In this document: positions 7,703 to 63,585 of the stretch, piece by piece
Position numbering within the stretch: the stretch's first letter is position 1
How the letters are laid out: every line of letters begins with the position of its first letter
DNA from: Octopus vulgaris
Taxonomy: Eukaryota
Assembly (NCBI GenBank): GCA_951406725.2
Contig: OX597816.1
Coordinates: forward strand, 149,110,001-149,174,000
Length of the DNA: 64,000 nucleotides
Direction of reading: 5' to 3'
Notes under the pieces: generated by a model
What the model saw: the letters and a program-made list of their open reading frames with translations, nothing else
Database searches by the model: none
Told to the model about the DNA's origin: nothing
Made by a program: the position numbers and the translations under genes

Positions 7703-8593
7703 TCAAGTAAGGTCATTTGCTTTATATAAACTTATACTTTTGACATTGGTAACTTGTGTTGATGATAATGGTAAACTGTCCCCTCCTGCTGTAAAAAGTC
7801 CTACAGGATAGACACCTTCATTGCTACCAGAAGTCACATTGCTGTCAATTGACTGAGTTGTTATAGTTTGATTGAGTGGTTTTGAAGGGTCTTCTCTTAT
7901 GGGACTGGACTGAGAACACATTTTCTCTACAATACATGATGCAGGGGATAAGTCAGAAACTAGAGAACTTTCAAATACATTAGATTTTAATTTAGCTGTT
8001 ATTCCATGTATTATATCTGTTGCTGCTTCATTTGAAACTGTAGATGTATCAAAATATTTATTCAGGTGACCATATTCGTCATCTTCAGGCCCAACAGGTT
8101 CAATTTTCACACCAGGGGCCATGCAAAAATTTTCAGAAAAGTTATTGTTTGTACTCAGTGATCCAATCTCAGAAGGCTCTTGTTTAATATCAAATGCTTG
8201 TGTAGTGATGGATGGAGTAGACTGAGATGTAACTGAAATGATAGATGATGATGGTAGAGGTGGTGGAACTGATAGTTTGGTCTGTGTGTTGTAATGGTCA
8301 CCTAAGACAGTAGATGTTGAAATATGTGGTTGAGATTCTTCATATGGAAGGCGACTATCACACAGTTGTTCAAATTCTTTCATGTCCAAACGTTTTGCAA
8401 TGATTTTCAACTGATGTAAAATATCTGGATCAAGATCTAATAATCCATTGTACATGTATTCAGCAAAGGCATTTAAAGCTTGTGTACTTACTTCCTCTGG
8501 AAAGTTAATTTCAAGAAAATTGCGAGAGGGGATATTTGTACTAAATACTGACAATAATTTTGGACACACAGCAGACAGGACAACTTTATGTAC
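7703..8593 (-). CDS. BTB module 1, exon C (terminal coding exon): C-terminal BTB half plus Ser/Thr/Pro-rich tail
   Basis: Acceptor TTTCAG|GTA at 8594/8593. VHKVVLSAVCPKL...FAEYMYNG...LC matches BTB/POZ motifs. Stop at 7703-7705; 891 nt. Paralogous to 31126-32103 and 61536-62600. Confidence 0.9.
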   Translation of the reverse strand, partial: VHKVVLSAVCPKLLSVFSTNIPSRNFLEINFPEEVSTQALNAFAEYMYNGLLDLDPDILHQLKIIAKRLDMKEFEQLCDSRLPYEESQPHISTSTVLGDHYNTQTKLSVPPPLPSSSIISVTSQSTPSITTQAFDIKQEPSEIGSLSTNNNFSENFCMAPGVKIEPVGPEDDEYGHLNKYFDTSTVSNEAATDIIHGITAKLKSNVFESSLVSDLSPASCIVEKMCSQSSPIREDPSKPLNQTITTQSIDSNVTSGSNEGVYPVGLFTAGGDSLPLSSTQVTNVKSISLYKANDLT

Positions 8594-8791
8594 CTGAAAC
8601 AAAGTAAATGATAAAACATGCTAATAACTTAACTTAAATCAAGGAGTAAGTCTTTATTCCTTGTTTTTCTCCCCAAAATATTCAATTCCAAACAGGAAAA
8701 CAATTGTCTCTAATGAAAAATTAGTAAAATTCAAAAGTTATTTTGATTTGTGTATCTTTATTAGCAATTTGAAAAAAATTATATCAATATA

Positions 8792-9190
8792 GGCGCAGGA
8801 GTGGCTGTGGTAAGTAGCTTGCTAACCAACCACATGGTTCCGGGTTCAGTCCCACTGCGTGGCATCTTGGGCAGGCGTCTTCTGCTATAGCCCTGGGCAG
8901 ACCAATGCCTTGTGAGTGGATTTGGTAGACAGAAACTGAAAGAAGCCTGTCGTATATATGTATATATATATATGTATGCGTGTGAGTTTGTGTGTCTGTG
9001 TTTGTCCCCCTAGCATTGCTTGACAACCGATGCTGGTGTGTTTACATCCCCGTCACTTAGCGGTTTGGCAAAAGAGACTGATAGAATAAGTACTGGGCTT
9101 CCAAAGAATAAGTCCCGGGGTTGATTTGCTCGACTAAAGGCGGTGCTCCAGCATGGCCACAGTCAAATGACTGAAACAAGTAAGAAGAGT
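8792..9190 (+). mobile_element. tRNA-derived SINE, family A (in BTB1 intron)
   Basis: A/B-box head (TGGTAAG, GGTTCAGTCCC). Close copy at 49205-49597 (-); decayed copies near 2560-2780, 29940-30295, 35843-36200, 52880-53205. Confidence 0.88.
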
Positions 9191-9680
9191 ATATGATGTG
9201 CAGGTAACTTTAAAAATCTTAAGAAACTGTTTGATAACTATTATAAAACACACTGAGAAAGAGAAACTTGTTTACTGGACACTTGGAGCTAACATATTTT
9301 CATGGCATATATAAACTGTCCTTTTTTACCAAAAAAAAAATGTTTCAAAAAGTTGGGCCTCCCATAAGCTTGTATTTTCTCCTATATTTTATTATTGTAA
9401 TCATGTAGAATATTTTCACTAGCATGATTCCTGAATTTAGGTTGAGTTGCACTGCTAACTTACTTTTTATATGCAGCGATTGTTTTCTGCTATAGCTAAA
9501 ATATACTGTAATATATACTAGATTACTTTAAATATTACATGCTTTTATCCACTAAAACTCTTTTTCTTGAATATGCACTATGGAAATTGTGGGGGGGGGG
9601 GCATCTATTGCGCCATCAAGTGCAGCAACTATGTTGGAGGCATTTCTAAATACTAAAGTTTTAAAAAGCAATATACTTAC

Positions 9681-9942
9681 CATCACAGCAGATGAACCAT
9701 TACTAATACTAGCATCACACAGTTTTCTATTCCTCCACAGCGAAGCAATGTTAGACATCACACGGCGCTGATAATTAGCAATTACAAATATCTGTTTCCG
9801 TGGAGTTTTTTCCACAGGTTTTCTTTTAGACACTTTTATTTGAGATGTTTTGGCAACACTTGAATGTTGCTGGACTGTCATGTGAGAAGTATCCTGGATA
9901 GATTTTGCAGATACCTGAGATGCTGGAATGATATTTATTTGC
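9681..9942 (-). CDS. BTB module 1, exon B: linker and N-terminal BTB half (LWRNRKLCDASI)
   Basis: Acceptor TTTTAG|G (phase 2), donor ATG|GTAAGT (phase 0), 262 nt; joins exon C in frame (AVM|VHK). Confidence 0.88.
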
Positions 9943-10056
9943 CTAAAATGTAAAATTTGTAAATAATATAAATGAAATAATATAAATAATATTTGTAAAT
10001 AATACAAATATGATGCAAATTTAATTACCAAAATTCCAATTTTAATTACCACATAC

Positions 10057-10235
10057 CTATCATCTAATTGCTGATCATTGATCTGCCTTTTCTGGACTTT
10101 TGGTGCTGATGGTTGAAGAGGTGATTCATCTGCAATGTGCACAGTTGCAGAAGAGTTATTCACAATATACATCATTTTATTTTGCAATTTTTCAGTTTTT
10201 CCATAATGATCTTCCATTAAATTAGCTGTCTGCAA
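10057..10235 (-). CDS. BTB module 1, exon A (linker)
   Basis: Phase-0 acceptor TTTATAG|TTG (in-frame alternative CAG| giving start 10229); phase-2 donor AG|GTATGT. ATVHIADESPLQPSAPKVQKRQ aligns with exon A of the other modules. Confidence 0.8.
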
Positions 10236-11013: not shown

Positions 11014-11048
<35 letters not shown>

Positions 11049-12177: not shown

Positions 12178-12456
12178 CAAATTTATTTCTGCTGCCTGTG
12201 TCAGTTGGATACATTTTGATGTCGGTTGTGAAGCTTCAGCTGCCCGTTTTTGTCGCTTTTTAATTCTGTCTAGGGTTTTTCGCCTAGAAGTCTTTTCAGG
12301 AGTTTCTGTTGCTCGTATCAGTTGCATTCTGATTCTGTTTTTGGTCCTTCGTTCTGCAGTCTTCTCTGCCGTTTCTACTGCCCGCAAGCTTCGCATTCTT
12401 CTTGCACTGTCTTTCCGTCGTTGCTCAACACTCGTAGATCGTGATCGAGGCATCAT
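12178..12456 (-). CDS. Candidate alternative first exon: STPR-like 23-aa repeat basic DNA-binding domain (93 codons)
   Basis: ATG start. Two 23-residue units ETAEKTAERRTKNRIRMQLIRAT and ETPEKTSRRKTLDRIKKRQKRAA. Phase-0 donor TTG|GTTTGT at 12178/12177. Confidence 0.7.
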
Positions 12457-13543
12457 GAATGTTGAACGAAGGATTGTTAAGGGGTTTGGAATTAAAATTA
12501 AGAAAAAATAACATAAAATGAAGATTCTTCACCAATTTTTCACTGAAGAATCATGCGTGTTGAAAAAAAACTTTGTATTTCAACAGTTTTACAGTGAAAT
12601 GCTAAAATACGAGTTGACAAAGAAATTCAAAGGTTGTTGGAAAGTTCAACATAAAATTTGCATATGACTAAATAGATGATTTTTTAAATAATAATCATGG
12701 TTATGAAAAAGAAAGTGAACAAAATGAAATACTTATAGAAAATAGTGCATAGAATTTGAATGATGGCAGGCGAATCAATCGTACTGTAGATCGTTGTAGG
12801 ATATAAATAATATAAGCACTTGCTTATCGAGAAATTTGTAAGTTCGATTAAAAAAAAAAAATTTAAGTATCACTGTTACGAATTATAATATCCTATCATT
12901 AATTCCTTTCTACAATAGTAAATAATAGATAAAAATATAGATATCTTATTTTGTACTGAGTACGAAAATGCGGCATAATGTCAAATGACGTTGATAGATG
13001 GATACTGTCTATATAATATAATATATCATATAATATAAAACAACGCGTCTAAGGCGTTGGACGGTAGGGCTTAACGAATTAGACGGCGAGCAGAAATAAA
13101 GTTTGAATACAATTTGTCATAAACCAGATACCCATTTTCCTGAAAGTTATGAGGGAAAAATGTAGTTATGCCACATAATACATGTTTTTATGTACTAGTA
13201 ATAGAGTTTTGTGCTGAGAACATACCAAAACAATGCATACCCTATGTGTACATAAATTCTTTTGCAAAATATCTGCAGAGTCAAAACATTTTGATTCACT
13301 GGTTTGCCAGTTTTGAAGATAATCAACCCAAAATTAAATGAGCTCAAGCCATTCACCCAATGAATATTCCTGTCAAATTTGATGAAAATCTGTTCGGCCG
13401 TTTCTCAGTAATTTTGCAAACACACAAACAAAGATGAGCAACTACTACAATACCCTGCTTTCACCAACGCGTGCAAGGTATAATTGTTTTGGGATGTGGA
13501 CTAAGATGTCTAATGTATGTAGCAACAGTATAATTTTCTTGCA

Positions 13544-14506
13544 GGCGGAGGGAAAGGACATGGACCGCACTCCATTTCAATTTTTTTTTTTTTTTTTTTG
13601 CTTTTTTCTTCAGAAAGCCATTTTTCGACTGCGGGGAATCCGAATCTGCAAAAAATATCAACATTTCAAAATTTTAATTCACCCCCACCCCTACTCTCCA
13701 ATTTTTCACCTTTTTTTAGAAATATTTTTATTTTTGCCGAAATACATAGAAAATACGGAGATGATGATTCTGAAAAAAAAATTTGTAAAATTTCAATTTT
13801 TCAAAAATCAATGATCACCCCCTCCACTCTGCCAGCGCATCTGTGACAGAAAGTAAACATGTGGTTGAGGGTCTTTTGGGATTAAGAAAGGTATGTAAAA
13901 ATTATTTTGTTTTGCACACACACGACAACAAAATGATATTAAAATTTTTTTTCTTTTTTGGTAATTCGTATTTAGTATGTGGATCTTCGGTTTGGCTTTT
14001 GTTTCTAGCTTGTCGGACTTTCCGGTTGGAGCGTATATAGAAATTGAAGATATTGAAAACCCCCAAAACATGTTTTCAAAATTTTAATTTTTCCCCTCTC
14101 CACCCCTCTGGCAAAGAAAAAAGGAGGTGGGGGAAATTAAAATTTTGAAAACGTGATTTATCGTTTAGCTGCTGTTTCTAGCAGTCGAGTTTAGATACTT
14201 TTTACGTCTGCTATTTTAGTACGAGGGGAGGGATGTTTATTATTATTATTTTTTATTTCTTGGAAAATTGAAATTTTACAAAATTTTTTTCAGAATCATA
14301 ATCTCCTAATTTTTCTACGTATTTCGCAAAAAAAAAAAAAAAAAAAAAAATCTGAAAAAAGTGAAAAACTGGGATTTGGGGTTAAAATTTTGAAATGCCG
14401 ATTTTGGCTGGCAGATTCGGAATCTCTGCAGTCGAAAAGGTGGGTTTCTATAGAAAAAAAAACAAAAAACCGAAAGGGGGTGCGGTCCATGTCCTTTACC
14501 TCTGCC
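13544..14506. mobile_element. Long-TIR (foldback-like) non-autonomous DNA transposon
   Basis: GGCGGAGGGAAAGGACATGGACCGCAC ... GTGCGGTCCATGTCCTTTACCTCTGCC; imperfect inverted arms of about 260 bp. Confidence 0.75.
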
Positions 14507-14739
14507 TTCAGAAAAACCCAAGTCTTTGTGATGTAATTTTGCAAATGTTAGTTTATACATGTTTAGTTAACGCAAAAACTGTGAAATTTAAACTTTGAGT
14601 GTCTTTAAATGTTTAGTTACATGCTGTTGATGTTTTGGAGATGTAGTGCGAGACTGTTTACTCAATATTTGTAACAATTGCATTTTGGTGTGCTGAAGGA
14701 AAGTAGATCACCATGTCCCTATGTGTATGTGATATGAAT

Positions 14740-15660
14740 GCAGAAGATTGAAGAGAAGAAAGATACACTCATCATAAATGATTTATGTGTGTGCGAGAGA
14801 GTGGTTAGACATTGCTATAAGTAGGTCATTAAAGTACAAAAAGAAGAATATAGGAGAAATAACCGAACCTTGAGGTACATCAGAGGTGGTAATGAGTCAA
14901 TAACTTTGGCAACACTTCTGGTAATGTGGCAGTCCAAAAAGAAATTTTCAGTCTTAGAGATGAGACAAATGCAGTCCATAGGAGTAAACTTAAGTAGTTT
15001 TCACTTGAAGTATTTGCTGATGTCAATGGCAACAACATTGCTTACACCAAAGTTCTCAAGAGTGAGAGATGAGTAGTGTATTAAGTGGGAGCAGATGTCC
15101 AACAGATCTGGTTGTATGGAAACTGTGCCGGTAATCACTGAGAAAGGAAAGAAATTCAATATGATAAAAGAAAGTTTTCTCACCTTTCAGATATTGAAAG
15201 TGAGGGCGATTGGTTGAGTGCTTTTTATCAAGAAGACTTCTTTTATGATATTAATCCATAATCTAATCAGAAGAGTAAGCAATGCATCTAAAGGAGATTA
15301 TACATGATTAAACTGACTTTTGTGAGCTTCAGCAGGCTCAGAATCTGTTAAATTCCTTAAAGTCCTGTGACAATTTTGAAATTACTAAACCACTTTTCTC
15401 CTAAGTTCACTTTGGCTTACTTCAGTTATTTCATTCAAATTGTGCCACCCCCAGAACTAATATCATTAACATCACTGAATTTGCCAGCAGGACAACTGAA
15501 CAATCTATAATGTTCAACAGTTAGATAGTCTTATGCATCTGATAGATCTAATACTTCGATTTTCAGAAAGCCTGCAAGAGCCCTCACTGAACCCTTTTAT
15601 CTACCTTCTTTTTCACTGGTTACATAGAATCAGGGCCCAGCTGATTTCCACCTGGCATAT
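14740..15660 (-). mobile_element. Highly decayed non-LTR RT remnant
   Basis: PIALTSI and PMDC-like motif traces on minus strand; no open ORF. Confidence 0.4.
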
Positions 15661-15682
15661 TAAAGTTTTACATGACACCTGT

Positions 15683-15778: not shown

Positions 15779-15921
15779 GCAAATTAAATTTTAATGTTGG
15801 AGTGAATCTAACGGTTTTTGTGTGTTTTTTAAACGGCTTATAAACACCTTCCACGCTGCAATTGTTTTCATTCCAGCACACGATCTCAGATCAGGTCACT
15901 TGCTATGCAAGAACATCTCCG

Positions 15922-16673
15922 GGTTAATATCTAGATCCGCACCCGGTGGGAAAAATGGAAACGAAAATGTGTAACAGTTGTAAGGCATCGTATATTGACG
16001 GAATAAGACGGGAAAAAAGCGCGCTGACAAACGGGGGGTGGGGGGTGGGGGCTCGGGAAATTCCCAGGATCAATCGTAGAGGATCCACGCCCAGGTGGCA
16101 AAAATGGAAAAAAATATGTGTAACAGGTGTAAGGCATCGTATATTGAAGGAATATGACGAAAAAAGCGCGCTGACAAACGGGGGGGGGGGGGGCTCGGAA
16201 AATTGCCTACGATTTAAAGAAAAATTTACCATCAATTTTCACCATTTTAAACGCATTTCACACACATAGCCCAATGTCATAATTCAAAACTAACGCAGCG
16301 AAAATTTTGAAAAGTTCCCCCAGTTCTGAAAAAAATCGATAAATTCGACATGGGGTCGCGAATCAGAAACACAATGGTGAAAATTGATGGTAAATTTTTC
16401 TTTAAATCGTAGGCAATTTTCCGAGCCCCCTCCCCCCCCGTTTGTCAGCGCGCTTTTTTTTCGTCATATTCCTTCAATATACGATGCCTTACACCTGTTA
16501 CACATATTTTTTTCTATTTTTGCCTCTACGGTTGATCCTGGGAATTTCCCGAGCCCCCCCCTGTTTGTCAGCGCGCTTTTTTCCCGTCTTATTCCGTCAA
16601 TATACGATGCCTTACAACTGTTACACATTTTCGTTTCCATTTTTCCCACCGGGTGCGGATCTAGATATTAACC
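15922..16673. mobile_element. Young long-TIR MITE with 8-bp TSD
   Basis: Termini GGTTAATATCTAGATCCGCACCCGG / reverse complement; TSD CATCTCCG (15914-15921, 16674-16681); near-identical arms of about 300 bp with internal subrepeats. Confidence 0.9.
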
Positions 16674-18714
16674 CATCTCCGTAATACACACACACACACA
16701 CACACGTATATATATATCAAGAGCAACCGTGTGACCATTCAATCCTTGTTAACTTTTTGTGATTTCAAAACAATTGTTGCTGTTCTGTGAGAATTAGACC
16801 ATTAGCTAACTCCAAGGTGATTATCAAGGATTATGATGAAGACTGAGAATAAACAAAATGGGTATTACTGACTCTCATTTTGCTTTTAGCAAGTTCATTG
16901 TTGATCTAAACAGCTCCAACATATTATTATTTAGTACCCACAAGACTACATATTATTTTTCAGTACCCACAAGACTACAAAATGTTGCACACTGTAAAAA
17001 CCTTCCTTCAATAAACAAAGACAAAAAAGGGTCATCATAATCCTCATCATTTCAACGTCTACTTTTCCATGCTTGCATGAATCAGACAGAATATACATCG
17101 AGGCAGATTTTCTAAAACTAGATGCCCTTCTTGTCACCAACCCTCACATGTTTCCAAACACAGCAATATTTCCTTATGTCCGGATATATTTTTCATGGAA
17201 GATTGTAAACAAATGACACCACTTGTACGACGACGACGACGACATTTGTTTACAACTATCGCGCTGTATCAAGATAGAGATACATGCACGCGCGAGGGTT
17301 GTACTGAAAGTGAGAATAAGCTTTTTATTAACTGATGTAGGGCGTTCAACTTGCACAGGCTGATAAAATAACACTTCCTCAGAGTAATTCTTCCTAAATA
17401 CCCTGCTTCGTTATTTTTAATCATGCTATGTTATTAATCATATAGTACCTATTTTATATATCAGAGTTGAAGTTTGTTTAGCACACTCTGTTCAGTATCT
17501 ATGGGTATGGCACGAATAAAAATAATAATGGTTTCTGATTTGGACACAAGGCTAAAAATTTCGAGGAGAGGGGTTTAGTAGATACCATCTACCTCAATAT
17601 TTGACTGGTACATTATTTTATCGGCCCTGAAAGGACGAGAGGCATAGTTGATCCTAGTGGAATTGAACTCAAAATATAAAGAACCGGAAAAATACTGCTA
17701 AGCATTTTTTTCTTGACGCTGTTATGATTTTGGGGACAAACAAACATTAGAAACAATACTAAACACAAACAAGTAAACATGGGCACAAATTTTACATTAA
17801 AAAATTGCAAGATTAAACAGGTGGATCGATGATTCTTTTCCATCTCAAACTGATGCTTATATTGTCTAATAACACTTTACATATAAAATCTTAACAGCTG
17901 ATTCATTCATAACAAAAACAGTATTCCCCAAAAGGGCTCGTATTTACATAAGAGTGGGAGACGTGTGACTTTCACCTATTTTGTTACTAAAACTATTTAC
18001 ACTTTTTCATAAGGTAGTAAGTAATGATTTATAATTTTTTTTAAAAGAGCAACTGTCACCGATTACTCAATGCTAATGAAACGAAAGCATCCGAATTTTA
18101 GAATAACATTATGCAATCAAACATGAAAGCTTCTATTGAGAAGTTATGTTTTAAAATTTTACCCTACCTTCGATTATGCAAGGTGATATGGTGTTATCAT
18201 TGTAAAGTCTTGTTGAGTAAACATTACAATTATTAATATTTAGAGTTAAGCTTTAACTGTAGATCGGCTAGTTAAATTCTTAGAAAACTAACGAATAAGG
18301 AAAATGTCTCCACGAAAACAAATTTAATCGCATGAAAATATTCAGAGTACTTTTGGTTTCTTTTGATCACCCTCGTGTATGTACAAGCAAAAATCTTCAC
18401 CGTCTCAATAAATTGAAATCATTGACGTACATCTAAGCATAACGGAAATTACAAACCAATTTTTGAATGTAGGACTGCTTCCCCAAACATTGAAACATAA
18501 CTATATAATGTGAGAAATCCTGCAAAAGCATTTCGCTGACTTATCACAATTGAATGTAGATGTGGGCCAAATTATTTTAATGATTGTGGGTGGGATATTT
18601 GGAAATTAGAACGAAAAACCAAAACTAAAACAAAAAGTGAAAGTGAGGAAGAGAGCATGAAACGTTAACCTCATATCTCTCTCTCTCTTGCCAGGACGTT
18701 AAGGTATACGTTAC

Positions 18715-18885
18715 CTTAATCTCGCCAGAACGTTTCTGTCGTCTTCTCTTTACAGCTGTTTTTCTCATTTGTTCTAGGCGCTTCTCTCTTTCTTCTACAG
18801 TTTCTCTCTCCCTTCTGTCCCTTGCTCTCAAGGCATCTGCCGCACGACGCTCTTCGTCTGTAGCATATTTCCTTGGCCTTCCCAT
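18715..18885 (-). CDS. Candidate alternative first exon: AT-hook (MGRPRK) plus STPR-like repeat (57 codons)
   Basis: ATG start; GRPRK hook; ETVEEREKRLEQMR resembles the STPR unit start; phase-0 donor AAG|GTAACG at 18715/18714. Confidence 0.72.
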
Positions 18886-19227
18886 TAAAGGATCAGAAAT
18901 GTTCAGTTTGACAGAATTTTGATACGGCGAGGATACTAAGCAAGTTATAGATTCAATATTAACTCGATATTGACTGTTTATTGTAAAGAATGACTACAAA
19001 AAGAATAAATCGCTGATTCCTTGCTAGCATCTAAGTTAGCTTGTTTTGGGCACATACGCGCCGAATCAATGACAGGATGATAACAATGATGATGATTTTA
19101 ATATGTGAGTAGAAATTGACGAAACCAGCTAGCTGGTCCGACATTAAACATTGGAAATGGAGAAGATGGTAGCATTAGATGTGAATACTCTGGAGATGGT
19201 AGCATTAGATGTGAATACTCTGGAGAT

Positions 19228-21308
19228 GTGAATACTATACTCCAGAGTATCCTGGACTCAATATGGGCAGCATGTGCAGCATCAGTGCCACGTAAACAAA
19301 AAAAGAAGAACCGCCCCAAAAGGGCAATTTGGGAAACTTCAGCGGTCCGACTTGCCAGGAGGGAACGTCGGACTGCTGAACGGGAATACAGGTTGCATAA
19401 ATCAGACACCAACAGGAAGAAGCGGAATAAATCCTCCAACCATCTCAAGCAAGTGACAAAAAAAGCAGTGCTTGAATTTGAACAGTGCATAGCAGCCAAT
19501 CCTGACAGCAAGGTTTTCTGGAAATATGTGCACTCAAAGCAGAGACCTCACTCTCCAGTGGGCCCTCTTCACAACCCTCACACAAACCAGATCACTGACG
19601 ACCCCAAGGAATGCGCAGAACTCATTGCCGAGTGCTATGCAAACATATTCACTGTTGAAAGTCAAAATGTACCATCTTCACCATCACTAACAGCAAACTC
19701 CATAACAACTATGGAATTTACACCTGCAATGCTGCGACGTCACCTTCAAAATAAGCGCAACTATGCCTCCCCTGGTCTCGATGGAGTTACATACCTGCTT
19801 CTCAAACGTGGCAGGCACTTCCTTTTACACCAGCTTTCTATTTTCTTCCAGTACTGTCTCAACAATGGTGCTACTCCGGAGCAGTGGAAAACTGCCAGTG
19901 TCATTCCTCTGTTCAAAAAGGGCGACCGCACATCACCTGTCAACTATCGCCCAGTCAGTCTCACTAGCTGTATTGCAAAACTGATGGAATCGTGTGTCAG
20001 AGAAACACTCTGGAACTTCTGGAGCTCTCACAGTCTCATCCGACCCTCACAATATGGATTTGTCCCTAACTCCAGCTGCAGTGACCAGCTTGTCGAGTTC
20101 CTTGAGGACATTACTCAGATTACTGACAGTGGCTCATGGGTGGATGTTGTCTACCTTGACTTTGCTAAGGCTTTCAACTCTGTGCCACACAAAAGGCTTA
20201 TGGTGAAACTCTCTGCAATGGGTGTGGGGGATGACCTTTTTAACTGGTTGAAATCCTTCATCCTCAGCCGAAAGGAGGTAGTCACAGTTCTAGGACAGCA
20301 CTCTACACCATATGAGATGTCATCGGGTGTACCACAGGGATCTGTCCTTGGCCCCCTCTTGTTTGTGGCATACATTAACGACATAGATGCCAATTTAAGG
20401 AATGCCACAGTATTGAAATATGCAGACGACATCAAGCTGTACCTTGAAATCAAGAGGACAGATCCTGATGTCTACAACTCTTTCCTGCAATCAGACCTAG
20501 ACACAATGCAGCAATGGATCACAGACTGGCAACTGAAACTGGCTGTGGACAAGTGTACCACCATGCATTTTGGGAGAAAAAACCCTGCGTTCACATACTC
20601 CCTCCACAACACTGATATCAAGAAATCCTCTTGCGAGCGTGACCTAGGCATCACTGTCAGCAGTGATTTGCGTTGGTCAAAGCATATCTCTAAGATTGTC
20701 AGGAAGGCCGAGGGTGTCTTGGCATCACTCAGCAGGTCTTTTGTTAGCCGCTCTCCAGCCATCTATTTAAAACTGTATACAGCTATGGTACGACCACACT
20801 TGGAATTCGCATCATCAGTTTGGAACCCCTATCTTGCACAGAACATTGACCTCCTGGAATCTGTCCAGAGACGTGCAACCAAACGCATATCCTCCATCAG
20901 ACACCTACCATATTCTGAGCGCCTTGTTTCCCTGGGCATGGATTCACTGAAGCTCCGGCGTTTGGCGACGGACTTGGTAAACACCCACAAAGTTATCAAC
21001 CACCTCACCAACAACAACACTGAACACCTTTTTGATCTCCATGTGTCTAACACACGTGGACATGCCTACAAAGTCAGAAAACAATACAGCTCCCATGACT
21101 TTCGGAAACATTTTTTCACGCTCAGAGTTGCTGAAGCATGGAATAAACTGCCTGCGTCAGTTGTTGACTGCCATGACACTGCATCTTTTAAGGCCCTCAT
21201 GCTTTCCGAAATCCGCCGAAACTTCACCTGATTATATATACACTTTAGATGAGTTGTAGTGCACCTGAGCACTGTACACAATTATTATTATTATTATTAT
21301 TTTTATTA
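19228..21308 (+). mobile_element. 5'-truncated CR1/L2-group LINE with uninterrupted 667-codon RT ORF (19228-21231)
   Basis: NYRPVSLTS, QYGF, YLDFAKAF, GVPQGSVLGPLLF, YADD, TRGH...F..RV..WN.LP motifs; short 3' UTR and (ATT)n tail; no endonuclease domain. Confidence 0.95.
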
Positions 21309-31125: not shown

Positions 31126-32103
31126 TCATACTGGCAGTTGCACTGATGATAATTGTTTTCTGTTCCTTCCAGCTGTAAAATGTCCTGCAGGATACACACT
31201 TTTATTGCCACCAGATGTCGCCATGTTATCAAATGACTGAATTGTTATAGTTCGATTTTGTGGTTTAGAAGGGTTTTCTCTTACAGGGTTAGATGGGAAA
31301 CACATTTTCTTTTCAGTATGCAATGCAAATTCTAAGTTAGAATGTAAAGAGCTTTCAAATGTATTAGATTTTAACTTAGATGATGTTCCACGTGTCACAT
31401 TTGTTATTGCTTTGCTGTGTGTGGTATCTAACAATGGTAAAACAAATTCTGAAGTGGATGCATCCTTACAGTTCAGCATGGTGCTTCGTGTCTGAGAACT
31501 GTTCGAAACTGGAATGGATGAATAGAACTTACTATGCTCATATCTGCTTTCCTCAGGTTCCATAGGTTCATTCTTCACTGTGGGAGCCATGACAAAATTA
31601 CCAGAGGAATTGATATCTATGTTATCTAATAAGGCAACCTCAGAGTTGTTTCCAAACAATGTAACTCTATTTTCTTTGGGTAATAATTCAGCTCTTGAAA
31701 TCTTGTCATTAATACCACTGGATGATATTGAAAAGAAACGTGGAGAAAGCTGAACTGGTGTTGTAACATTTTGTGACACAGATACATTATCTGTCATTGG
31801 GTTGGATGCAACAAATGCATTAGTAGCTGTAATAGGTTGCTGATGTGTTGTATTAGGCAGTTGACTATCACACAGTTGTTCAAATTCTTTCATTTCCAAA
31901 CGTTTTGCAATGATTTTTAATTGATGTAAAATATTTAGATCAAGATCTAGAATCCCATTATACATATAATCAGCAAAAGCATCTAAGGCTTTTGTGCTAA
32001 CTTCCTGTGGTAAGTTAATGTGGAGAAAGTTCTGAGAGAGCATCTCTGCACCAAATACTGACAACAGTTTAGGACATACAGCAAATAAGACAACTTTATG
32101 TAC
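31126..32103 (-). CDS. BTB module 2, exon C (terminal coding exon)
   Basis: Acceptor TTTCAG|GTA; VHKVVLFAVCPKL...FADYMYNG; 978 nt to stop. Confidence 0.9.
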   Translation of the reverse strand, partial: VHKVVLFAVCPKLLSVFGAEMLSQNFLHINLPQEVSTKALDAFADYMYNGILDLDLNILHQLKIIAKRLEMKEFEQLCDSQLPNTTHQQPITATNAFVASNPMTDNVSVSQNVTTPVQLSPRFFSISSSGINDKISRAELLPKENRVTLFGNNSEVALLDNIDINSSGNFVMAPTVKNEPMEPEESRYEHSKFYSSIPVSNSSQTRSTMLNCKDASTSEFVLPLLDTTHSKAITNVTRGTSSKLKSNTFESSLHSNLEFALHTEKKMCFPSNPVRENPSKPQNRTITIQSFDNMATSGGNKSVYPAGHFTAGRNRKQLSSVQLPV

Positions 32104-33676: not shown

Positions 33677-33971
33677 CATCACTGTAGATAAACCATTGTC
33701 AATACTAGCATCACATAATTTTCCACTCTTCCATAGCAATGCCAGGCTGGACATTACATTTTTCTGATGATCAGCAAGAATAAATATTTTCTTCCCTTGA
33801 GGCTGTGGTATTTCAAAGGTCTTTGGTTGTGTAGTAGGTACTGGAACTGGAAAGGTAGAGAAATGAACTGGATCTGGCATATTTTCTGACTCCTCAACCA
33901 CACAGATAAGGTTTTTGATTGAAGGTTTCTGAGAATTTTCAGCCATCTTAGAGATATGACCAATATTTTGC
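33677..33971 (-). CDS. BTB module 2, exon B (LWKSGKLCDASI)
   Basis: Acceptor TTTCAG|G (phase 2), donor ATG|GTAAGT (phase 0), 295 nt. Confidence 0.88.
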
Positions 33972-34065: not shown

Positions 34066-34265
34066 CTGTCAGTAAAATCATTTTCTTGACAATTTTTCTT
34101 TAATTTCAAATTTTCTTCCTGAAATTCCTTGGGAAAAGTCTGCTTCTTAGGAATTTTGGCAGGTGGAGATGGAGGATGGTCACTGTCTGAGATAAGAACT
34201 GTAGCAGGAGAGCTAGGAGGTTGCTTTTTTTTGTTTAAATATAAGTTTTTATTTGATGATCCGGC
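34066..34265 (-). CDS. BTB module 2, exon A (AGSSNKN...PATVLISDSDHPPSPPAKIPKKQ...DFTDR)
   Basis: Absent from the ORF track because it has no start. Phase-0 acceptor ATTGTAG|GCC, phase-2 donor AG|GTAACT, 200 nt open, homologous to 63350-63585; contains no Met. Confidence 0.85.
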
Positions 34266-37212: not shown

Positions 37213-37650
37213 CAAGTTCGCAATTTCTGCTCTCTTTTTAAATTTATGAAACCAACCTTGACTAGCCTTAAATGGACGAATTTCGTAATCTGAACTACGG
37301 GGGAAGCTTTTCTTCACATGTTCATAAATCTCTAGGGCTTTTTCACGAATAACTTCCATATTTACTTGGTCCCCCTTCTTTTGCTTTTCCTTTATCCACA
37401 TTAACAAACGCTTCTCAACTTCGACTATGAAAGACCTGTTTTTAAAGACTCTGGTTGATTTATCAATTACCTTCACAGATTTTAGTCTTTCTTTTTGGGC
37501 ACATATGGTTGCAACAGTCGAAGGGGGAAGCCCGTATTCAGCACAAAGAACTCTTCTTTTAAAGCCTTGTTCGAATTTGTTGATAATTTCCTGTTTTTGT
37601 TGGATCGTTATGACTTTGCGCTTCGTCTTTGTTTTGGGTTTAGATGACAT
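37213..37650 (-). CDS. Candidate alternative first exon: CENP-B/pogo-Tigger bipartite HTH DNA-binding domain (146 codons)
   Basis: KRKVITIQQKQEII...YGLPPSTVATI (CENP-B N-terminal/psq-type HTH) and EKRLLMWI...IREKA...FKASQGWFHKFKKR (Tc5-type HTH). Consensus phase-0 donor TTG|GTAAGT. No DDE domain follows. Confidence 0.85.
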
Positions 37651-40110: not shown

Positions 40111-40479
40111 TGGAGCAGATATATTGTTGTAGTGAAAATGGTACTCCCCTTCCCATGTGACAAAGTGGTATGATAGACCACTATAAAGTCAGTCGTTGTA
40201 GGAGGTCAGTAATAGAAGAGTCATTGTATGAGTTCTCAGTTGGAGTTGGTATCAGTCACGTGTTACATAGACATTGAAAAAAGTTTTTTTCATGCAAACA
40301 ACATTGAAAAATTTTTCATGTGGAAAAATTAAAAACTTGACACAGGAATAACAAACATTTTTGTTGTACATATTTTACAAAAAATCCATAAAATTATGGG
40401 AAACTTTTGCTCGACTAAAGGCGGTGCTCCAGCATGGCCGCAGTCAAATGACTGAAACAAGTAAAAGAGTAAAAGAGTA

Positions 40480-47300: not shown

Positions 47301-47700
47301 AAACTAGTCAGCTACAGACATAATATACCTCGACTTTGCCAAGGCCTTCGACAAGGTTGATCATGGCATGACATGTCACAAGCTGCGAAACCTTGGTATT
47401 ACTGGGAAACTAAGAGTGGCTGCATGATTTTCTGAAGGGCAGGAGTCAGATAATTGTAGCCAATAGTGCTCAGTCTGAAGAGACACCAATTCTCAGCGGA
47501 ATTCCATAGGGAACTATACCAGGGCCACGATTATTCGTGATAGCCCTCTCAGACATGCTTTCCGCTGTCTGACCAGTTATGCTGACGACACAAAAGTATC
47601 ACAGGCAGTTAGGAATCCGGAAGACATCATAAAACTGCAGAAAGACCTGAACAAAATCTACAAACAGGTTAATAAAAATAACATGCGGTTCAATTTTAGG
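44320..47700 (+). mobile_element. Degenerate CR1/L2-group LINE (endonuclease+RT) interrupted by a mariner
   Basis: MGDFNFPNI, ILDLCLTN, SDHN, NYKPISLTS, QHGFRPGRSCLTQL, YLDFAKAFDKV, YADD; in-frame stops. An oppositely oriented LINE 3' fragment lies at 44104-44316. Confidence 0.88.
45167..46457 (-). mobile_element. Full-length mariner with frameshifted transposase
   Basis: TA TSD, TIRs TCAGGTCATCCCATAAG / CTTATGGGATGACCTGA; WVPHEL, TGDEKW, DNARPH, YSPDLAPSDYHLF. Confidence 0.95.
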
Positions 47701-49809: not shown

Positions 49810-50103
<294 letters not shown>

Positions 50104-50338: not shown

Positions 50339-50713
50339 TTTGTTCGTTTGAAATATTTCCATTTGTCTCCATATCCTGTTTGGATTTTCGTTTTGGGGTA
50401 GGGAACTTGCTGTTTCTTGGGGGAAAGCTGGTGTACAATTCTCAGTTATTGTTCTCGCAACTTCTGTGTTGTTAGCTCCTGCTGTAATTTGTTGTATTGT
50501 TTTGAGAACAACGTTTCTACAGGCATCTTGTGGATGAGAATGTGGTGGTGGATCATACTGCAGAACATCATCAATTGTTTTGAGTCTTGCAGCGCATGTT
50601 TTTCTTTCTTCACATTTCCAGTATGTAATATTATTTTTCTTCTTATCAACAGTATAAGCGTACCCATTATATAGTAATTTCCTGCCGCCACGTTTAGTAA
50701 GAGTGAATTCCAT
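50339..50713 (-). CDS. Candidate alternative first exon: FLYWCH zinc finger (125 codons)
   Basis: MEFTLTKRGGRKLLYNGYAY...YWKC-x5-C...HSH is the FLYWCH pattern. Phase-0 donor AAA|GTAAAC at 50339/50338 (weaker consensus); the ORF beyond it reads as AT-rich intron. Confidence 0.8.
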
Positions 50714-59900: not shown

Positions 59901-59983
59901 TTGGAAACTAACTCATTGTTCACCAAATGCAATTTAAAAAATATCAATATTGAAGCACCCTAAAATATTAAGTGCAAGATTAA

Positions 59984-61370
59984 CCCTTTCGTTACTAACC
60001 CGACCGAAAAAATTTTTGGTTCATAATACTAACCCGGCCGTGAGAACCTATTTTTATTTAAATGTAAATTGGAACCCAAATCTCGTTGGTACATTCGTTA
60101 AAACATGTGATTTCACATTGTAAATAGTTAAGTTATAGTATTCGACATTGCTTGAAGTGATATCTCAACTCAGTGAATTTTGGGAGATTTTTTTCCACAT
60201 CGATTTTTCTTCAACTTTGAAAATGGATAGGAGTTTCATGTTATCAAGCATTAATTCTGAATTTAAAGCTTTTTCAACAGAAAATGGGGAGAAATCGAGA
60301 AAAAGAATGAAATAGGTACTAAAGCACGTTGTGTACAAAATAATGAATATTTTTTTATCTGAAAATGAAAGCAGCGCCTTCCGAAGAAACAAAGTGGCGA
60401 TGGCGACAGCAACATCGGAACGAAGTAAAAAAAAACTTTAAAAATGTTTTTATTAGCAATTTTTCTGGGGAGATAGTTTATCTATAGTTTTTCTTAGGAA
60501 GCGAAACCGTTAGACTTTTATTTTTTTTAGTATGCTAGTTTGAAGCGATCACGTTGGAAACAAATTTACGCAGATTGTAAACAAACACAAAAGTTTGGAA
60601 AATTTGTGAAGTAAATACTGGGTACTGTTGTGGATTTAGTTTTTATACAGGGAAACTAATGTTAGTCAGCATGGCTTAGGGTACGATGTGGTCTGGAAGT
60701 TATTGTTTGAAGCGATCAATGCGGAAACAAATTTACGCAGAATGTAAACAAAACACAAAATGGGGGATCAAATTTCGGAAAATTTGTGAAGCAAAATACT
60801 GAGTACTGCTGTGGATTTAGTTTTTATACAGAGAAAATAATGTTAGTCAGCATGGCCTAGGGAACGATGTGGTCTGGAATTTATCACTTCCATACCATAA
60901 CCATGGCCGTATATTATTTTTTGACCGATTTCTTTAGTTTGGTCAAACTTGTGGTGGATTCCAGTATTTCAGTTTATTCCACCTTTATGGTACACCTGTT
61001 GTGCATTAAATTCAACTGATGATCTAGTGATGTGCACAATTCTTCTTTATCAAAATTTTGTTGCATACCCATTTGAATATTAGCTGATGATTCATCTTCT
61101 ATGGTGATGTTTAAACAAAATTTTTATATTTTTACCTTTTGCTCAATTTACCTAGATTTACCTGTAATTAAAGTCACTTTGAGACAAAAGTTATGCAATA
61201 GAATTGATTAAGAACCCTTTCTTTAATTATGTTCCAAATATCACATTAATATGTTGATAAGTAAAAAGTTACAGTTATTTAATGAAACAAGCCTAAATTC
61301 ATGATTATTTTAGAATTTAATTGAAACTCATGAGGGGTGTATTTTGGTCAGAAATATAGTAACGAAAGGG
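59984..61370. mobile_element. Non-autonomous piggyBac-type element (1387 bp)
   Basis: TTAA TSD both sides, perfect 14-bp TIR CCCTTTCGTTACTA, internal tandem duplication of about 170 bp (60536-60880); no transposase. Confidence 0.9.
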
Positions 61371-61535
61371 TTAAAACAAAATTACCTAGTCATTGCACAC
61401 TACTTTTCTTCAAAAACGAAATCAAGACAGATATTTGTGAAAATGTTTTTAATACAAAAATACAACTTGATCCATCAAATATATATATATACACACACAC
61501 GCATACACACAGAAGAAAATGTACTCTTTTTCATA

Positions 61536-62600
61536 TCAAGTAAGACCATCTGTTTTATATAAACCTATATTTTTGACACTGGTAACTTGTGATGATGATA
61601 ATGGTAAACTGTCCCCTCCTGCTGTAAAAAGTCCTACAGGATAGACACCTTCATTGCTACCAGAAGTCACAATGTTGTCAATTGACTGAGTTGTTATAGT
61701 TCGATTTAGTGGTTTAGAAGGGTCTTCTCTTATGGGACTGGACTGAGAACACATTTTTTCTACAATACATGATACAGGGGATAAATCAGAAACTAGAGAG
61801 CTTTCAAATACATTAGATTTTAATTTAGACGTTCCTTGCAATACATTTGTAGTGTTGCTATCTGTGGTGTCTGAAAATGGTAAAACAAATTCTGAAGAGG
61901 ACACAACCGTAGAATTCAAACCGGTACCTGGTATCCGAGAACTGATTGATACTGGAGTAGATGTGTAAGACTGATTATTCAGTTGACCATACCTGTCATC
62001 TTCAGGCCCTACAGGTTCAGTTTTCACACTGGGAACAATAACAAAACCACCAGAAGAATTGCCACTTTTACTAGCATCTAGTGAAGCAACCTCAGATTCC
62101 TGTCCAAAGACAGCTGCTGTATCTTTCTTAACTTGTGCTAATTCAGCCTCAGATATCTCTTGTTTAACATCAATGACTTGTGTAGTGACAGATGGAGTAG
62201 AGTGAGATGAAACTGATGTGATGGATGATGAAGGCAGAGATGGTTGAACTGTTGGAACTGTAATACTGGGTGGGTTTGATAGAATGGTCTGCATCTGGCT
62301 GAGATCACCAAATACAGTAACCGTTGAAGCTGGTTGATGAGGTATTGTGCTTGGAAGACGACTATCACACAGTTGTTCAAATTCTTTCATGTCCAAACGT
62401 TTTGCAATGATTTTTAACTGATGTAAAATATCAGGATCAATATCTAATAGCCCATTGTACATATATTCAGCAAAGGCATTTAAAGCTTCTGTGCTAACTT
62501 CTTCAGGAAAGTTCACTTGGAGAAACTTGTGAGAGAGGATATCTGTACTAAATACTGACAACAGTTTTGGACACACAGCAGACAGGACAACTTTATGCAC
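61536..62600 (-). CDS. BTB module 3, exon C (terminal coding exon)
   Basis: Acceptor TTTCAG|GTG; VHKVVLSAVCPKL...FAEYMYNG; 1065 nt to TGA. Confidence 0.92.
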   Translation of the reverse strand: MHKVVLSAVCPKLLSVFSTDILSHKFLQVNFPEEVSTEALNAFAEYMYNGLLDIDPDILHQLKIIAKRLDMKEFEQLCDSRLPSTIPHQPASTVTVFGDLSQMQTILSNPPSITVPTVQPSLPSSSITSVSSHSTPSVTTQVIDVKQEISEAELAQVKKDTAAVFGQESEVASLDASKSGNSSGGFVIVPSVKTEPVGPEDDRYGQLNNQSYTSTPVSISSRIPGTGLNSTVVSSSEFVLPFSDTTDSNTTNVLQGTSKLKSNVFESSLVSDLSPVSCIVEKMCSQSSPIREDPSKPLNRTITTQSIDNIVTSGSNEGVYPVGLFTAGGDSLPLSSSQVTSVKNIGLYKTDGLT

Positions 62601-62958
62601 CTGAAACACAAACACAAGGAATTGATTAGATAGGAGGGAAATATATGAACGGGAAACAGAAAACATAAAAAAGTAAAACCATTTGCATCTCTTAGAAATA
62701 AAAATACATTCCTTGGATCCTATATGGTTTTATAAAGTATCAGTATTGCAAATAAGTTAATTCAATAAATCATATTGATTTCCTTCAAGAAAAAGGTCAA
62801 GTCCCAAAGGAAGAACTTGATATTCTAATATTATTATCTTTGGAAGATTAGTCTGATGGAAAACATGCATTCTTCATTTGTTTCATGAAATGTTCTTTAA
62901 ATAGTCAGTAAATTAATTTGTAGCCAGAGAATATTAATGTTAAAAGCAATATACCTAC

Positions 62959-63262
62959 CATCACAGTAGATGAGCCATTACCAATACCAGCATCACACAA
63001 CTTTCCACTTTTCCACAGAGATGCTAGATTGGACATGACACAACGCTGATGATCAGCAACAACAAATATTCGTTTTTCTCGTGGTCGAGGTTTTTCCACA
63101 GGCTTCGGTTTGGGTTCACTTATTTGAATTGGTGGAGCTAACACTTGAACAGGCCTTGTAATATTTTGAGAAACCTGGGCCACACTCATATGCTGCTGGA
63201 CTGGCATTTGAGCTTGTAGTGTTTTTGCAGCCATCTGAGATACCTGAGTGTTAACCATTTGT
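62959..63262 (-). CDS. BTB module 3, exon B (LWKSGKLCDAGI)
   Basis: Acceptor TTTCAG|A (phase 2), donor ATG|GTAGGT (phase 0), 304 nt. Confidence 0.9.
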
Positions 63263-63349
63263 CTGAAATTAAAATTTACATTTTAGAAGATAATCACAAG
63301 TGATGTTCAAAATTAAGAGGCGAAAAGACCAATTAATCATCATACATAC

Positions 63350-63585
63350 CGCCGGTCATCAAATCGACGATTTTCGAACCTCCGTTCCTGGAAACGCTGC
63401 TCTTGGAAGCGTTGCTCATCAAAGCGTCGATCATCAATTTGTTTTTTCTGAATTTTTGCAGGTGAAGGTTGAGGAGGTGAATCATCTGGAATGAGCACTG
63501 GTGCAGACGAGACAGTGGCAGCAGCAATCTTTTTACGCCTAGGGTTCTCAGGCTTTCCGGAATATACTTGATTTGAAGGTCCTGC
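63350..63585 (-). CDS. BTB module 3, exon A; its upstream exon(s) probably lie beyond the window
   Basis: Phase-0 acceptor TTTACAG|GCA, phase-2 donor CG|GTATGT, 236 nt, no Met. Confidence 0.87.

Follow-up and report, generated by a model that had tools for sequence, protein, structure and literature searches.

Architecture of the BTB locus

The analysed stretch of Octopus vulgaris DNA (contig OX597816.1, positions 149,110,001 to 149,174,000; 64,000 nucleotides, hereafter the window) contains three BTB modules on the minus strand, BTB3, BTB2 and BTB1, each consisting of three exons with AG/GT ends that form a single open frame of 534, 490 and 443 aa, respectively. BTB3 comprises constant exons A (63350..63585), B (62959..63262), which encodes the N-terminal extension of the BTB domain, and C (61536..62600), with the BTB core, an S/T-rich tail and the stop codon. 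The corresponding exons are located at 34066..34265, 33677..33971 and 31126..32103 in BTB2 and at 10057..10235, 9681..9942 and 7703..8593 in BTB1. The BTB domains all pass the Pfam cut-off. As originally predicted, the modules begin at phase-0 acceptors (63585, 34265 and 10235). The first Met in the BTB3 and BTB2 frames is residue 81 and 76, respectively, so that exon A of both lacks a Met, again as predicted; BTB1 exon A contains an in-frame Met at residue 7.

Upstream of BTB2 and BTB1 lie four domain exons, which were correctly described as open, encoded on the same (minus) strand, starting with ATG and ending in a phase-0 GT donor. A FLYWCH exon (50339..50713; 125 aa; donor AAA/GTAAAC) is a first exon of BTB2, and an exon with CENP-B_N and Tc5 HTH domains (37213..37650; 146 aa; donor TTG/GTAAGT) is its alternative first coding exon; these domains pass the Pfam cut-offs (1.8e-13 for FLYWCH, 4e-9 and 8e-15 for CENP-B_N and HTH_Tnp_Tc5). 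An STPR-like first exon of BTB1 (12178..12456; 93 aa; donor TTG/GTTTGT) is represented in proteins P0057 and P0062, and the join to BTB1 of a basic STPR-like first exon (18715..18885; 57 aa; donor AAG/GTAACG) is predicted only. The STPR assignment of these two exons stands in part: neither matches Pfam STPR, and both match a local profile (E 7e-10 and 2e-7) built from 7 paralogous N-termini with the orthologues of the tested exons excluded. The AT-hook proposed for the 18885 exon was not borne out, as it has no Pfam AT_hook match at E<=1, just a GRPRK core. Once the exons are joined, the anticipated product sizes of 615, 636, 500 and 536 aa are reproduced exactly, and the 615-aa FLYWCH-BTB2 and 636-aa CENPB-BTB2 products are identical to P0027 (CAI9720174.1/XP_029634354.1) and P0055 (CAI9720175.1/XP_029634353.1), respectively.

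Public gene models contain three of the four predicted junctions: XP_036357301.1 and XP_052822537.1 have 12178>10235, and both BTB2 junctions (50339>34265 and 37213>34265) occur in records of O. vulgaris, O. sinensis and O. bimaculoides. The fourth, 18715>10235, is present in no fetched protein; the O. vulgaris model CAI9720173.1 uses the 18885 exon late, behind a truncated BTB2. BTB1 also has a short non-domain first coding exon (14869..14979, minus strand; RefSeq models XP_014782232.1 and XP_036357303.1), CpG-poor upstream and probably preceded by a non-coding exon, as well as an internal Met at which one RefSeq isoform begins. Thus, exon anatomy, phase and gene models support the reading of variable DNA-binding first exons on constant BTB modules.

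The BTB3 gene beyond the window

BTB3 is the constant end of one ~183-kb gene that extends past the window. A search of the flanking DNA for further cassettes identified 29 DNA-binding cassettes for BTB3, all on the same strand, at 64208-244295 in the window's frame; because these lie upstream of the window, the original prediction covered just the tail of the locus. The cassette types are THAP, CENP-B, Brinker, psq, FLYWCH, DUF3504, Tc1-like HTH, STPR-like and two zinc fingers; the DUF3504, Tc1-like HTH, C2H2-like and TTF-like cassettes fall below the Pfam cut-offs, and the main-array STPR-like cassette has no Pfam match. Acceptor 63585 is the common entry for the 29 cassettes and three linker exons, the cassettes reaching BTB3 directly or through the nested linkers with matching phases: six tier-3 cassettes have phase-1 donors, as linker L2 requires, and the remaining 23 are phase 0. 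Four exons encode half a THAP domain, the last zinc ligand of which is supplied by one shared exon; taken alone, two of the four have no THAP match. For most cassettes, the best within-locus match is 50% identical or less, or there is none, and only local groups exceed 50%. Profile-matched ORFs are on the minus strand in 31 of 31 cases between 64.8k and 244.4k, and none was detected from 244.4k to 414k, with profiles seeded mostly from the BTB3 locus itself.

Annotated isoforms represent 23 of the 29 BTB3 cassettes. Altogether, 34 proteins share the BTB3 start, with 24 distinct N-termini after merging of orthologues, and RefSeq isoform numbers for O. bimaculoides LOC106877732 reach at least X36. 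In contigs assembled from four runs of four studies, presumed to be RNA, acceptor 63585 is joined at GT-AG to five donors within the 10 kb examined and by loose ends to three more (eight donors in total), and the joint between exons A and B appears as a loose end in 4/4 runs. Contigs end at the donor of cassette 68040, with no joint listed. Cassettes 77277, 80032, 117135 and 189759 and the 18885 exon of the window lack isoform or read support among the matches listed (15 of 32 main-cluster members).

The BTB domain matches Pfam BTB (1.2e-10) across profile positions 3-107 and is modelled as a ZBTB-type domain with an N-terminal extension that would form a homodimer. The homodimer model scored 0.82 versus 0.02 for the best control, with contacts agreeing at >=85% and pLDDT >=84, and in it extension residues 276-281 contact residues 361-363 of the partner, as in strand-swapped ZBTB-type homodimers. 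This score level is reached by 21/30 solved homodimers and 0/23 monomers from microbes and by 17/29 eukaryotic homodimers (7/16 from animals), and the resemblance to solved BTB dimers may account for it here. The closest solved structures are BCL6, NS1-BP, KLHL3 and SLX4, with the TTK-type CG6765 at 2.7e-5. The Tramtrack motif FxLRWN, reported in arthropods only (PMC11426971), is not found in this BTB, where the equivalent strand reads IFVVADHQ; its absence, together with the reversed domain order, rules out membership in the Tramtrack group.

BTB1 and BTB2 are tandem copies, and the same design was found at further loci of octopus as well as in Argonauta and cuttlefish. Two constant regions illustrate this in records that match cuttlefish or cluster with it: one is combined with THAP or a FLYWCH-like domain (P0152/P0303, the second assigned by eye), the other with THAP or ZSWIM3_N (P0088/P0129).

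Copy number, conservation and transposon ancestry

On the concern raised at the outset that the domain exons might be recent multicopy transposon fragments, the copy search covered three of the four, and these (the FLYWCH, CENP-B and 18885 exons) are single-copy in the O. vulgaris genome. Among 27 other matches of the FLYWCH exon, none with >=60 residues covered exceeds 50% identity; 149 other matches scored for the CENP-B exon are all at most 49% identical; and the 18885 exon has one paralogue, the main-array cassette at 80032 (73% identity), within the same locus. The window exons searched have only distant, decayed relatives outside the locus. Between Octopus species, all 18 main-array cassettes compared are 94.4-100% identical to O. 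bimaculoides; 5/7 coding SNPs are silent, and 0/8 indels are coding.

Most cassette types are known from transposases. The THAP head of O. bimaculoides isoforms X4/X7, absent from the O. vulgaris BTB3 locus, has 23 dispersed relatives in that genome (57-83% identity, 11 with stops); a decayed sense-strand Tc1 at 214394 has CpG-rich DNA and phase-0 donors, and its N-terminus is still open over 168 aa; and the second-cluster model P0142 contains an entire DDE transposase. Transposases have been proposed as a source of such DNA-binding domains (Cosby et al., bioRxiv 10.1101/2020.05.07.082677; PMC10027918). All these observations would also fit a locus devoted chiefly to transposon control, in which captured heads allow BTB-based repressors to recognise invading elements, as KRAB-transposase fusions do; such a locus would have the same anatomy and is compatible with our explanation, differing in purpose. 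We regard this purpose as unlikely, given that the cassettes examined are single-copy, far from their relatives outside the locus and conserved between species, a pattern that points to host roles fixed long ago and not to an arms race.

Promoter choice or splicing choice

The DNA upstream of 32 of 33 cassettes is CpG-rich (o/e >=0.6), whereas this holds for just 1 of 13 internal exons (p 3e-6); the values are 1.19 for the FLYWCH and 1.32 for the CENP-B exon. The sole CpG-poor cassette has an acceptor at its ATG and annotated upstream exons. In a second cluster, the same test yielded 9/10 cassettes versus 3/13 internal exons, and of 11 ORF stretches within the locus that are transposon-like or unassigned, 10 have CpG o/e at or below 0.53. 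Octopus methylation is reported to lie in gene bodies, with little of it at promoters (PMC9476566). Where a UTR is visible, the annotated 5' UTR continues unspliced into the upstream DNA for 6 of 8 cassettes, subject to RefSeq 5' ends that may be incomplete; the O. bimaculoides model of the CENP-B exon has a ~500-nt unspliced 5' UTR. No motif shared before the cassettes was found except CpG-containing words. The CpG-rich upstream DNA and unspliced UTRs favour separate promoters and, on this indirect support, each cassette probably has its own.

Alternatively, the same proteins could arise by splicing choice, from a distal promoter or leader to mutually exclusive cassettes or through trans-splicing, as in mod(mdg4) and lola (PMC11426971, PMC4667647). 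Consistent with this, some cassettes are only ~260-350 bp apart, intron coverage is unbroken in one run, and two tier-4 cassettes take upstream exons in some models. However, acceptors are not enriched upstream of cassette ATGs (p 0.2), no contig joint in the four runs enters the 5' side of any cassette, and the CpG-rich DNA and unspliced UTRs also speak against it; moreover, with all cassettes upstream on one strand, cis-splicing would be enough and trans-splicing unneeded, although the latter could still occur between alleles. We consider splicing choice quite improbable. A third reading takes the cassettes for annotation noise or for transposon fragments exonised neutrally, with BTB alone or plain single genes as the working product. 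It could draw on the many decayed relatives of these domains in the genome, the internal Met and corresponding isoform of BTB1, the single first exon at several downstream daughter modules and some public models chimeric across them. This reading is largely refuted: the cassettes share one strand, have ATGs at domain edges and follow a phase specific to their tier; their proteins are 94-100% identical between species; SNPs are biased towards silent changes; spliced contigs come from four studies; and BTB3 and BTB2 lack a Met before residue 76-81.

Comparison with known systems

The predicted likeness to mod(mdg4) and lola is partly upheld. As in those genes, a single gene combines a constant BTB with 20-30 or more isoforms differing in the DNA-binding domain; however, the octopus locus is not a member of that family, and since its BTB is not of the Tramtrack type, the likeness is convergent. 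Furthermore, the octopus order is inverted, with a variable N-terminus and the BTB mid-protein in the fetched isoforms, and which isoform is made apparently depends on the first exon, not on a 3' exon or trans-splicing. The octopus heads belong to about ten unrelated domain types, whereas each Drosophila-type gene expanded one, FLYWCH in 26/31 mod(mdg4) isoforms and C2H2 in 17/20 lola isoforms (PMC11426971, PMC4667647). Variable exons of mod(mdg4)/lola occur on both strands in several species. The octopus cassettes are all upstream on one strand.

Clustered protocadherins are known for stochastic single-cell promoter choice via CTCF/cohesin. Pcdh alpha/gamma, UGT1 and GCNT2 share with the octopus locus tandem first exons spliced in one frame to shared exons; each of their first exons has a promoter (PMC1885805), as is probable for the octopus cassettes. 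The octopus locus resembles the protocadherins in its first exons and is not a member of their family. Their variable exons are paralogues that differ little in length, frequently share a promoter motif and code for surface proteins or enzymes, whereas the octopus first exons encode mostly unrelated DNA-binding domains in four nested tiers and two phases, with no shared motif. KRABINER and other host-transposase fusions likewise splice a transposase DNA-binding domain to a host regulatory domain, but these are separate tetrapod fusion genes favouring KRAB (Cosby et al., bioRxiv 10.1101/2020.05.07.082677), unlike dozens of alternative 5' heads on one BTB.

We found no literature account of this architecture. 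Mukherjee and Moroz (2023; PMC10027918) list the very same octopus THAP-BTB and CENPB-BTB proteins as separate genes: LOC106877732, the BTB3 locus, occupies 11 rows of their supplementary Table 1 and the BTB2 orthologue LOC106877745 at least one, under names including Thap1, 6, 7, 8, 11, 12 and 13, Psq1 and 2, and 77732. They treat BTB/POZ as a transposon component; the main text does not use the word 'isoform', and the accessible parts of the paper describe no shared constant region.

Model and implications

Our preferred explanation, with a probability of about 0.78, interprets the locus as a modular source of transcription factors in coleoid cephalopods, in which promoter-bearing cassettes are cis-spliced to shared BTB exons. 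Each cassette would have its own promoter and splice donor and no working acceptor; a transcript would start at one cassette and be spliced directly, or via L3>L2>L1, to exons A-B-C, yielding a putative regulator with one DNA-binding domain, a linker, the BTB and the S/T-rich tail. Because the BTB is predicted to dimerise, co-expressed isoforms could pair two different DNA-binding heads. The cassettes may be old single-copy domains of transposase types, which arrived upstream of the constant region by capture or duplication and were retained when the donor phase fitted the next shared exon; partial tandem duplication would have produced smaller daughter modules, BTB2 and BTB1 among them. A doubtful but possible extension is an open-ended transcription-factor generator of coleoids, whose BTB region keeps gaining transposon heads and whose cells, for example neurons, express different subsets as a protocadherin-like identity code on chromatin; if true, BTB dimerisation could combine the heads into as many as several hundred DNA-binding pairs, which would act as a combinatorial code.

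Gene counts change as well: ten names published for octopus genes of the THAP, psq and CENP-B types denote isoforms of one locus, and methods that capture only transcript 3' ends would be expected to merge all isoforms as one gene. The locus also offers a THAP zinc site to which a variable and a shared exon both contribute, and a testable case of stepwise transposase-domain recruitment, constrained by strand, phase and promoter and including captures that may be recent. One locus and its nearby copies can yield a large family of putative gene regulators. The mod(mdg4)/lola solution appears to have been invented here independently a second time, with the order reversed and apparently through promoter choice, in the lineage whose brains are the largest among invertebrates.

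Architecture and extent of the BTB3 locus

The exons, donors, acceptors and phases named by the original prediction are all present in the window, and the predicted product sizes of 615, 636, 500 and 536 aa were reproduced exactly. Three minus-strand constant modules, each with exons A, B and C, begin at acceptors 10235 (BTB1), 34265 (BTB2) and 63585 (BTB3). Joined to BTB2, the FLYWCH (50713-50339) and CENP-B (37650-37213) first exons give proteins that match, letter for letter, records P0027 (CAI9720174.1/XP_029634354.1) and P0055 (CAI9720175.1/XP_029634353.1), and the respective O. bimaculoides orthologues have 625 and 646 aa. Both exons at 18885-18715 and 12456-12178 had been proposed as heads of BTB1: the junction of the latter with BTB1 exon A was found in one O. 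sinensis and one O. bimaculoides model, but none of the proteins fetched starts with the former, which one public model places late rather than first. Pfam recovered the FLYWCH, CENP-B and BTB domains of the window exons but neither the AT-hook nor the STPR; the AT-hook label, lacking Pfam support, was dropped, and we use STPR-like for the 18885 and 12456 exons, both of which match a local profile. Decayed relatives form a background for FLYWCH and CENP-B, but these two exons and the 18885 exon are each single-copy, and an origin as recent multicopy transposon fragments was ruled out for the four exons searched.

The locus is real, conserved and larger than originally reported, and we put the probability of the proposed architecture, in which alternative first exons carrying DNA-binding domains (cassettes) join a shared BTB module, at about 95%. 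A genome search yielded 24 matches to the BTB exon in the 2.8-Gb genome: 12 form a minus-strand tandem array here (three of them in the window), five a second cluster at a distance of 2.1 Mb, and seven lie elsewhere. BTB3 forms the end of RefSeq LOC106877732, the isoform numbers of which reach at least X36 in the protein search; its start is common to 34 fetched proteins that present 24 distinct N-termini once orthologues are merged. By isoform mapping and a scan of 594 kb, we identified 29 domain cassettes, all on the minus strand, at 64208-244295 (coordinates beyond 64000 continue the window frame, the contig position being 149110000 + x), and none in the 170 kb past 244295 in the same scan. 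The array comprises 14 THAP (four of them halves), three CENP-B, three DUF3504/QRICH1-like, two Brinker and two psq cassettes, and one each of FLYWCH, Tc1-like HTH, STPR-like, C2H2-like and TTF-like zinc finger, where Tc1-like, STPR-like, C2H2-like and TTF-like are our own labels, with Pfam scores below the cut-off or absent. Annotated isoforms among the fetched proteins account for 22 of the 29 cassettes and a paper's supplement for one more; one is represented by contig joints only, another by contigs that run up to its donor, and the remaining four are predicted. For the five without isoform or joint, the best-scoring GT was taken as the donor.

Exon A of BTB3 ends (63350-63440, minus strand) in imperfect five-residue charged repeats terminating in RF, which are kept in Argonauta and missing from BTB1 and BTB2. 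The last ~100 residues of BTB3 and BTB1 (61536-61860 and 7703-8030, minus strand) are nearly identical and their middles differ, which suggests, from the sequences compared, recent duplication or gene conversion.

Nested tiers and a split THAP domain

The cassettes, named here by ATG position, fall into four nested tiers. Tier 1 splices directly to 63585 in phase 0 and includes the TTF-like (64567), C2H2-like (65291), DUF3504 (67249), THAP (68040, 72555, 73219 and 77277), CENP-B (73934), Tc1-like HTH (79016) and STPR-like (80032) cassettes. Tier 2, also in phase 0, feeds the shared 96-nt linker exon L1 (87473-87378, phase 0/0) and consists of psq (91124), four half-THAP exons (101094, 103329, 104847 and 117135), two DUF3504 (108056 and 121205) and two THAP cassettes (113294 and 126163). 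Tier 3 feeds linker L2 (158118-158069, donor phase 0) from CENP-B (163133), a two-exon THAP (187985+183311), Brinker (189759 and 198755) and THAP (192648 and 201382); the L2 acceptor is in phase 1, and phase 1 is likewise the donor phase of all six cassettes feeding it, against phase 0 for the other 23. Tier 4 feeds linker L3 (212249-212210, acceptor phase 0, donor phase 1) from the phase-0 THAP (229401), FLYWCH (239062), CENP-B (240349) and psq (244295) cassettes and from a short non-domain exon (230198).

The four half-THAP exons end at C-S/T-K, and L1 opens with the His needed to complete their C2CH site. Alone, the three with annotated isoforms score 22.0 bits, 19.5 bits and no match against a THAP cut-off of 23.9; once joined, the same three reach 25.8-27.6 bits and pass. 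The intact THAP cassette 68040, the sole other relative of the half-THAP exons in the genome search, contains L1-like sequence within its own exon. Because L1 completes the half-THAPs and resembles part of 68040, it was probably once the second half of a THAP.

Spliced contigs and variants

Contigs from four runs, each of a different study, taken as RNA on the guess of the tool and carrying no information on starts, strand or levels, were placed on 63301-73300. GT-AG joints to the BTB3 acceptor come from donors 64208 (three runs), 66248 (two) and 64839, 72181 and 72908 (one each), so that five of the six cassettes in this interval are joined to BTB3; for the sixth, contigs break off at the donor. 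At the BTB3 acceptor, loose ends lead to L1 in four runs (96-97 letters, the exon length) and, further, to the 79016 and 73934 cassettes, and no joint among these contigs enters any cassette from upstream. Other loose ends correspond to the exon A-B junction, to an 8-letter adapter-like tail and, in three cases, to simple repeats, two of which were sought in the region and not found. In three runs intron depth climbs as the constant exon is approached; this was given no weight as evidence. Among the 40 SNPs listed of 43, seven are coding and five of those silent; none of eight indels is coding.

Putative separate promoters

Octopus methylation, as described in passages of PMC9476566, lies in gene bodies and is scant at promoters and transposons. 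The CpG observed/expected ratio at random positions in this gene is 0.30. In the 400 nt above the ATG the ratio has a median of 1.03 across 33 cassettes, 32 of which reach 0.6 or more; upstream of 13 internal exons the median is 0.15, and one exon reaches this level. For 16 isolated cassettes the signal is highest beside the ATG and drops with distance. The sole low-CpG cassette is psq 244295; an acceptor coincides with its ATG, and RefSeq places exons upstream of it. Transposon-like or unassigned open stretches in the locus mostly show ratios of at most 0.53 (10 of 11). The same test in the second cluster gave 9/10 first exons vs 3/13 internal exons, the latter three each having a first exon <2 kb upstream of them. 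By eye, annotated 5' UTRs of O. bimaculoides run unspliced into upstream DNA at 37650, 72555, 91124, 192648 and 201382, and at 113294 for 15 nt only; 229401 and 244295 have private upstream exons.

A common leader, or an acceptor preceding each ATG, was rejected, as a simple home-made score revealed no enrichment over random positions (p 0.2). Given the CpG-rich upstream DNA, replicated in the second cluster, and the unspliced 5' UTRs, it is likely that each cassette has a separate promoter. A search for a shared promoter motif returned chiefly CpG-containing words. CpG-rich islands lacking a cassette lie at 60000-61000, 150500-153500, 167500-169500, 219500-222000 and 249000-306000, and could be non-coding first exons or neighbouring promoters.

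Conservation and relatives

Identity to O. bimaculoides is 94.4-100% for 18 main-array cassettes and 81.7-96.6% for the three window cassettes compared. One Argonauta protein combines a tier-3 THAP, L1 and BTB3, and in an Acanthosepion record a related constant region bears a head judged by eye to be Brinker-like. First exons of the THAP, Brinker/CENP-B, CENP-B or STPR type precede the five BTB modules of the second cluster. On another chromosome, LOC106879774 places FLYWCH and DUF3504 heads (Pfam) and, by eye, two FLYWCH-like and one HTH-like head on one constant region, and records clustering with or matching cuttlefish have two heads per constant region at two loci.

We found no clear non-cephalopod case among 150 matches listed (37 Pfam-scanned, 10 identified by name) from a library of one protein per 50% cluster, and all named matches with an N-terminal DNA-binding domain and this BTB are cephalopod. 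In a Lymnaea protein (CAL1533708.1, P0175; E 6e-12) the BTB lies late and is preceded by no Pfam domain; this protein shares with record P0184 a conserved N-terminal block, BEN-like by eye and without a Pfam match, and the two are possibly a single-head relative outside cephalopods.

In an unrooted tree of 36 of 42 rows (six without the anchor motif were left out), with unsure deep branches and no event order, BTB1 and the next downstream module (together spanning -6374 to 10235) are sisters separated by very short branches, with a single O. bimaculoides counterpart in the tree set. Several public models splice between modules, XP_036357301.1 for example joining BTB1 exon B to one lying 37 kb further downstream; these may reflect real cross-module splicing or an artefact. 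Unlinked BTB relatives occur on other contigs (L013 on C23, L014 on C14, L015 on C24, L021/L022 on C15 and L023 on C2), and their exon-C acceptor, where checked, is the same as here.

Array growth and possible transposon captures

Within the locus, duplicated THAP pairs are 63-90% identical and the STPR duplicates 73%. The array grew by local duplication and probably also through new captures. One THAP, at the N-terminus of O. bimaculoides isoforms X4 and X7, is absent here in the O. vulgaris assembly, where it has instead a dispersed, partly decayed family at matches L078-L080 and 20 other places (57-83% identical to that head, 11 of 23 with stops). A decayed tier-4 Tc1 (L057/L058, 213400-214394, minus strand), not counted as a cassette, lies in sense and has phase-0 donors, a CpG ratio of 0.79 and a DNA-binding part that is open over 168 aa; it is possibly a capture in progress.

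Also left uncounted were 92560 (minus strand; DUF4817 HTH, Pfam 7e-14, CpG-rich upstream, without a strong donor), the tier-3 199940 (minus strand; FLYWCH-like by eye, no Pfam match, phase-1 donor, CpG-rich upstream), 174668 (CpG 0, no relevant Pfam match) and the candidates 150107 and 102274. Amid the second-cluster first exons, a Tc1-like HTH is encoded in an open frame of 392 aa (contig positions 151263479-151264654, plus strand), and the second-cluster model P0142 has a DDE_3 transposase domain ahead of BTB.

In the window, an open 703-aa LINE-type reverse-transcriptase ORF (by eye) runs antisense at 19120-21228 (plus strand) between BTB2 and the 18885 exon. Nested MITE-like inverted repeats lie between the BTB1 first exons (15921-16674 and 13534-14516), with arms of 81-121 nt, up to 99% complementary; in a further, weaker pair the arms measure 62-63 nt. 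Decayed remnants, labelled by eye as mariner-like, Gypsy-like and LINE (23148-24251, 27128-27650, 45575-46369, 40465-41806 and 47029-47739), are all CpG-poor and served as CpG controls.

Comparison with known systems and predicted function

Mukherjee and Moroz (2023; PMC10027918) noticed octopus THAP-BTB and CENPB-BTB proteins, assign their 11 rows for LOC106877732 to ten gene names and call the BTB transposon-derived; the passages of that paper seen here do not describe a shared constant region. PMC9699675 uses neither BTB nor THAP, and no prior description of the architecture was found in the searchable literature, a scope outside which most subscription papers fall. The octopus locus works like mod(mdg4) and lola, but its BTB is of another type and its domains stand in another order. 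In layout it matches the Pcdh and UGT1 clusters, but its variable exons are unrelated and its tiers nested. It is a variant of known designs, reached independently.

We propose that the head is chosen by promoter choice, that intervening cassettes would be skipped for want of an acceptor and that the linkers would split the long intron into steps. The BTB carries the N-terminal extension of those transcription-factor BTBs that dimerise, and modelling supports a homodimer (score 0.82 vs 0.02 for the best control), a difference possibly due to likeness to solved dimers. Because one BTB is common to all isoforms of a module, co-expressed isoforms should pair different heads, and a regulatory role with such BTB pairing appears reasonably probable.
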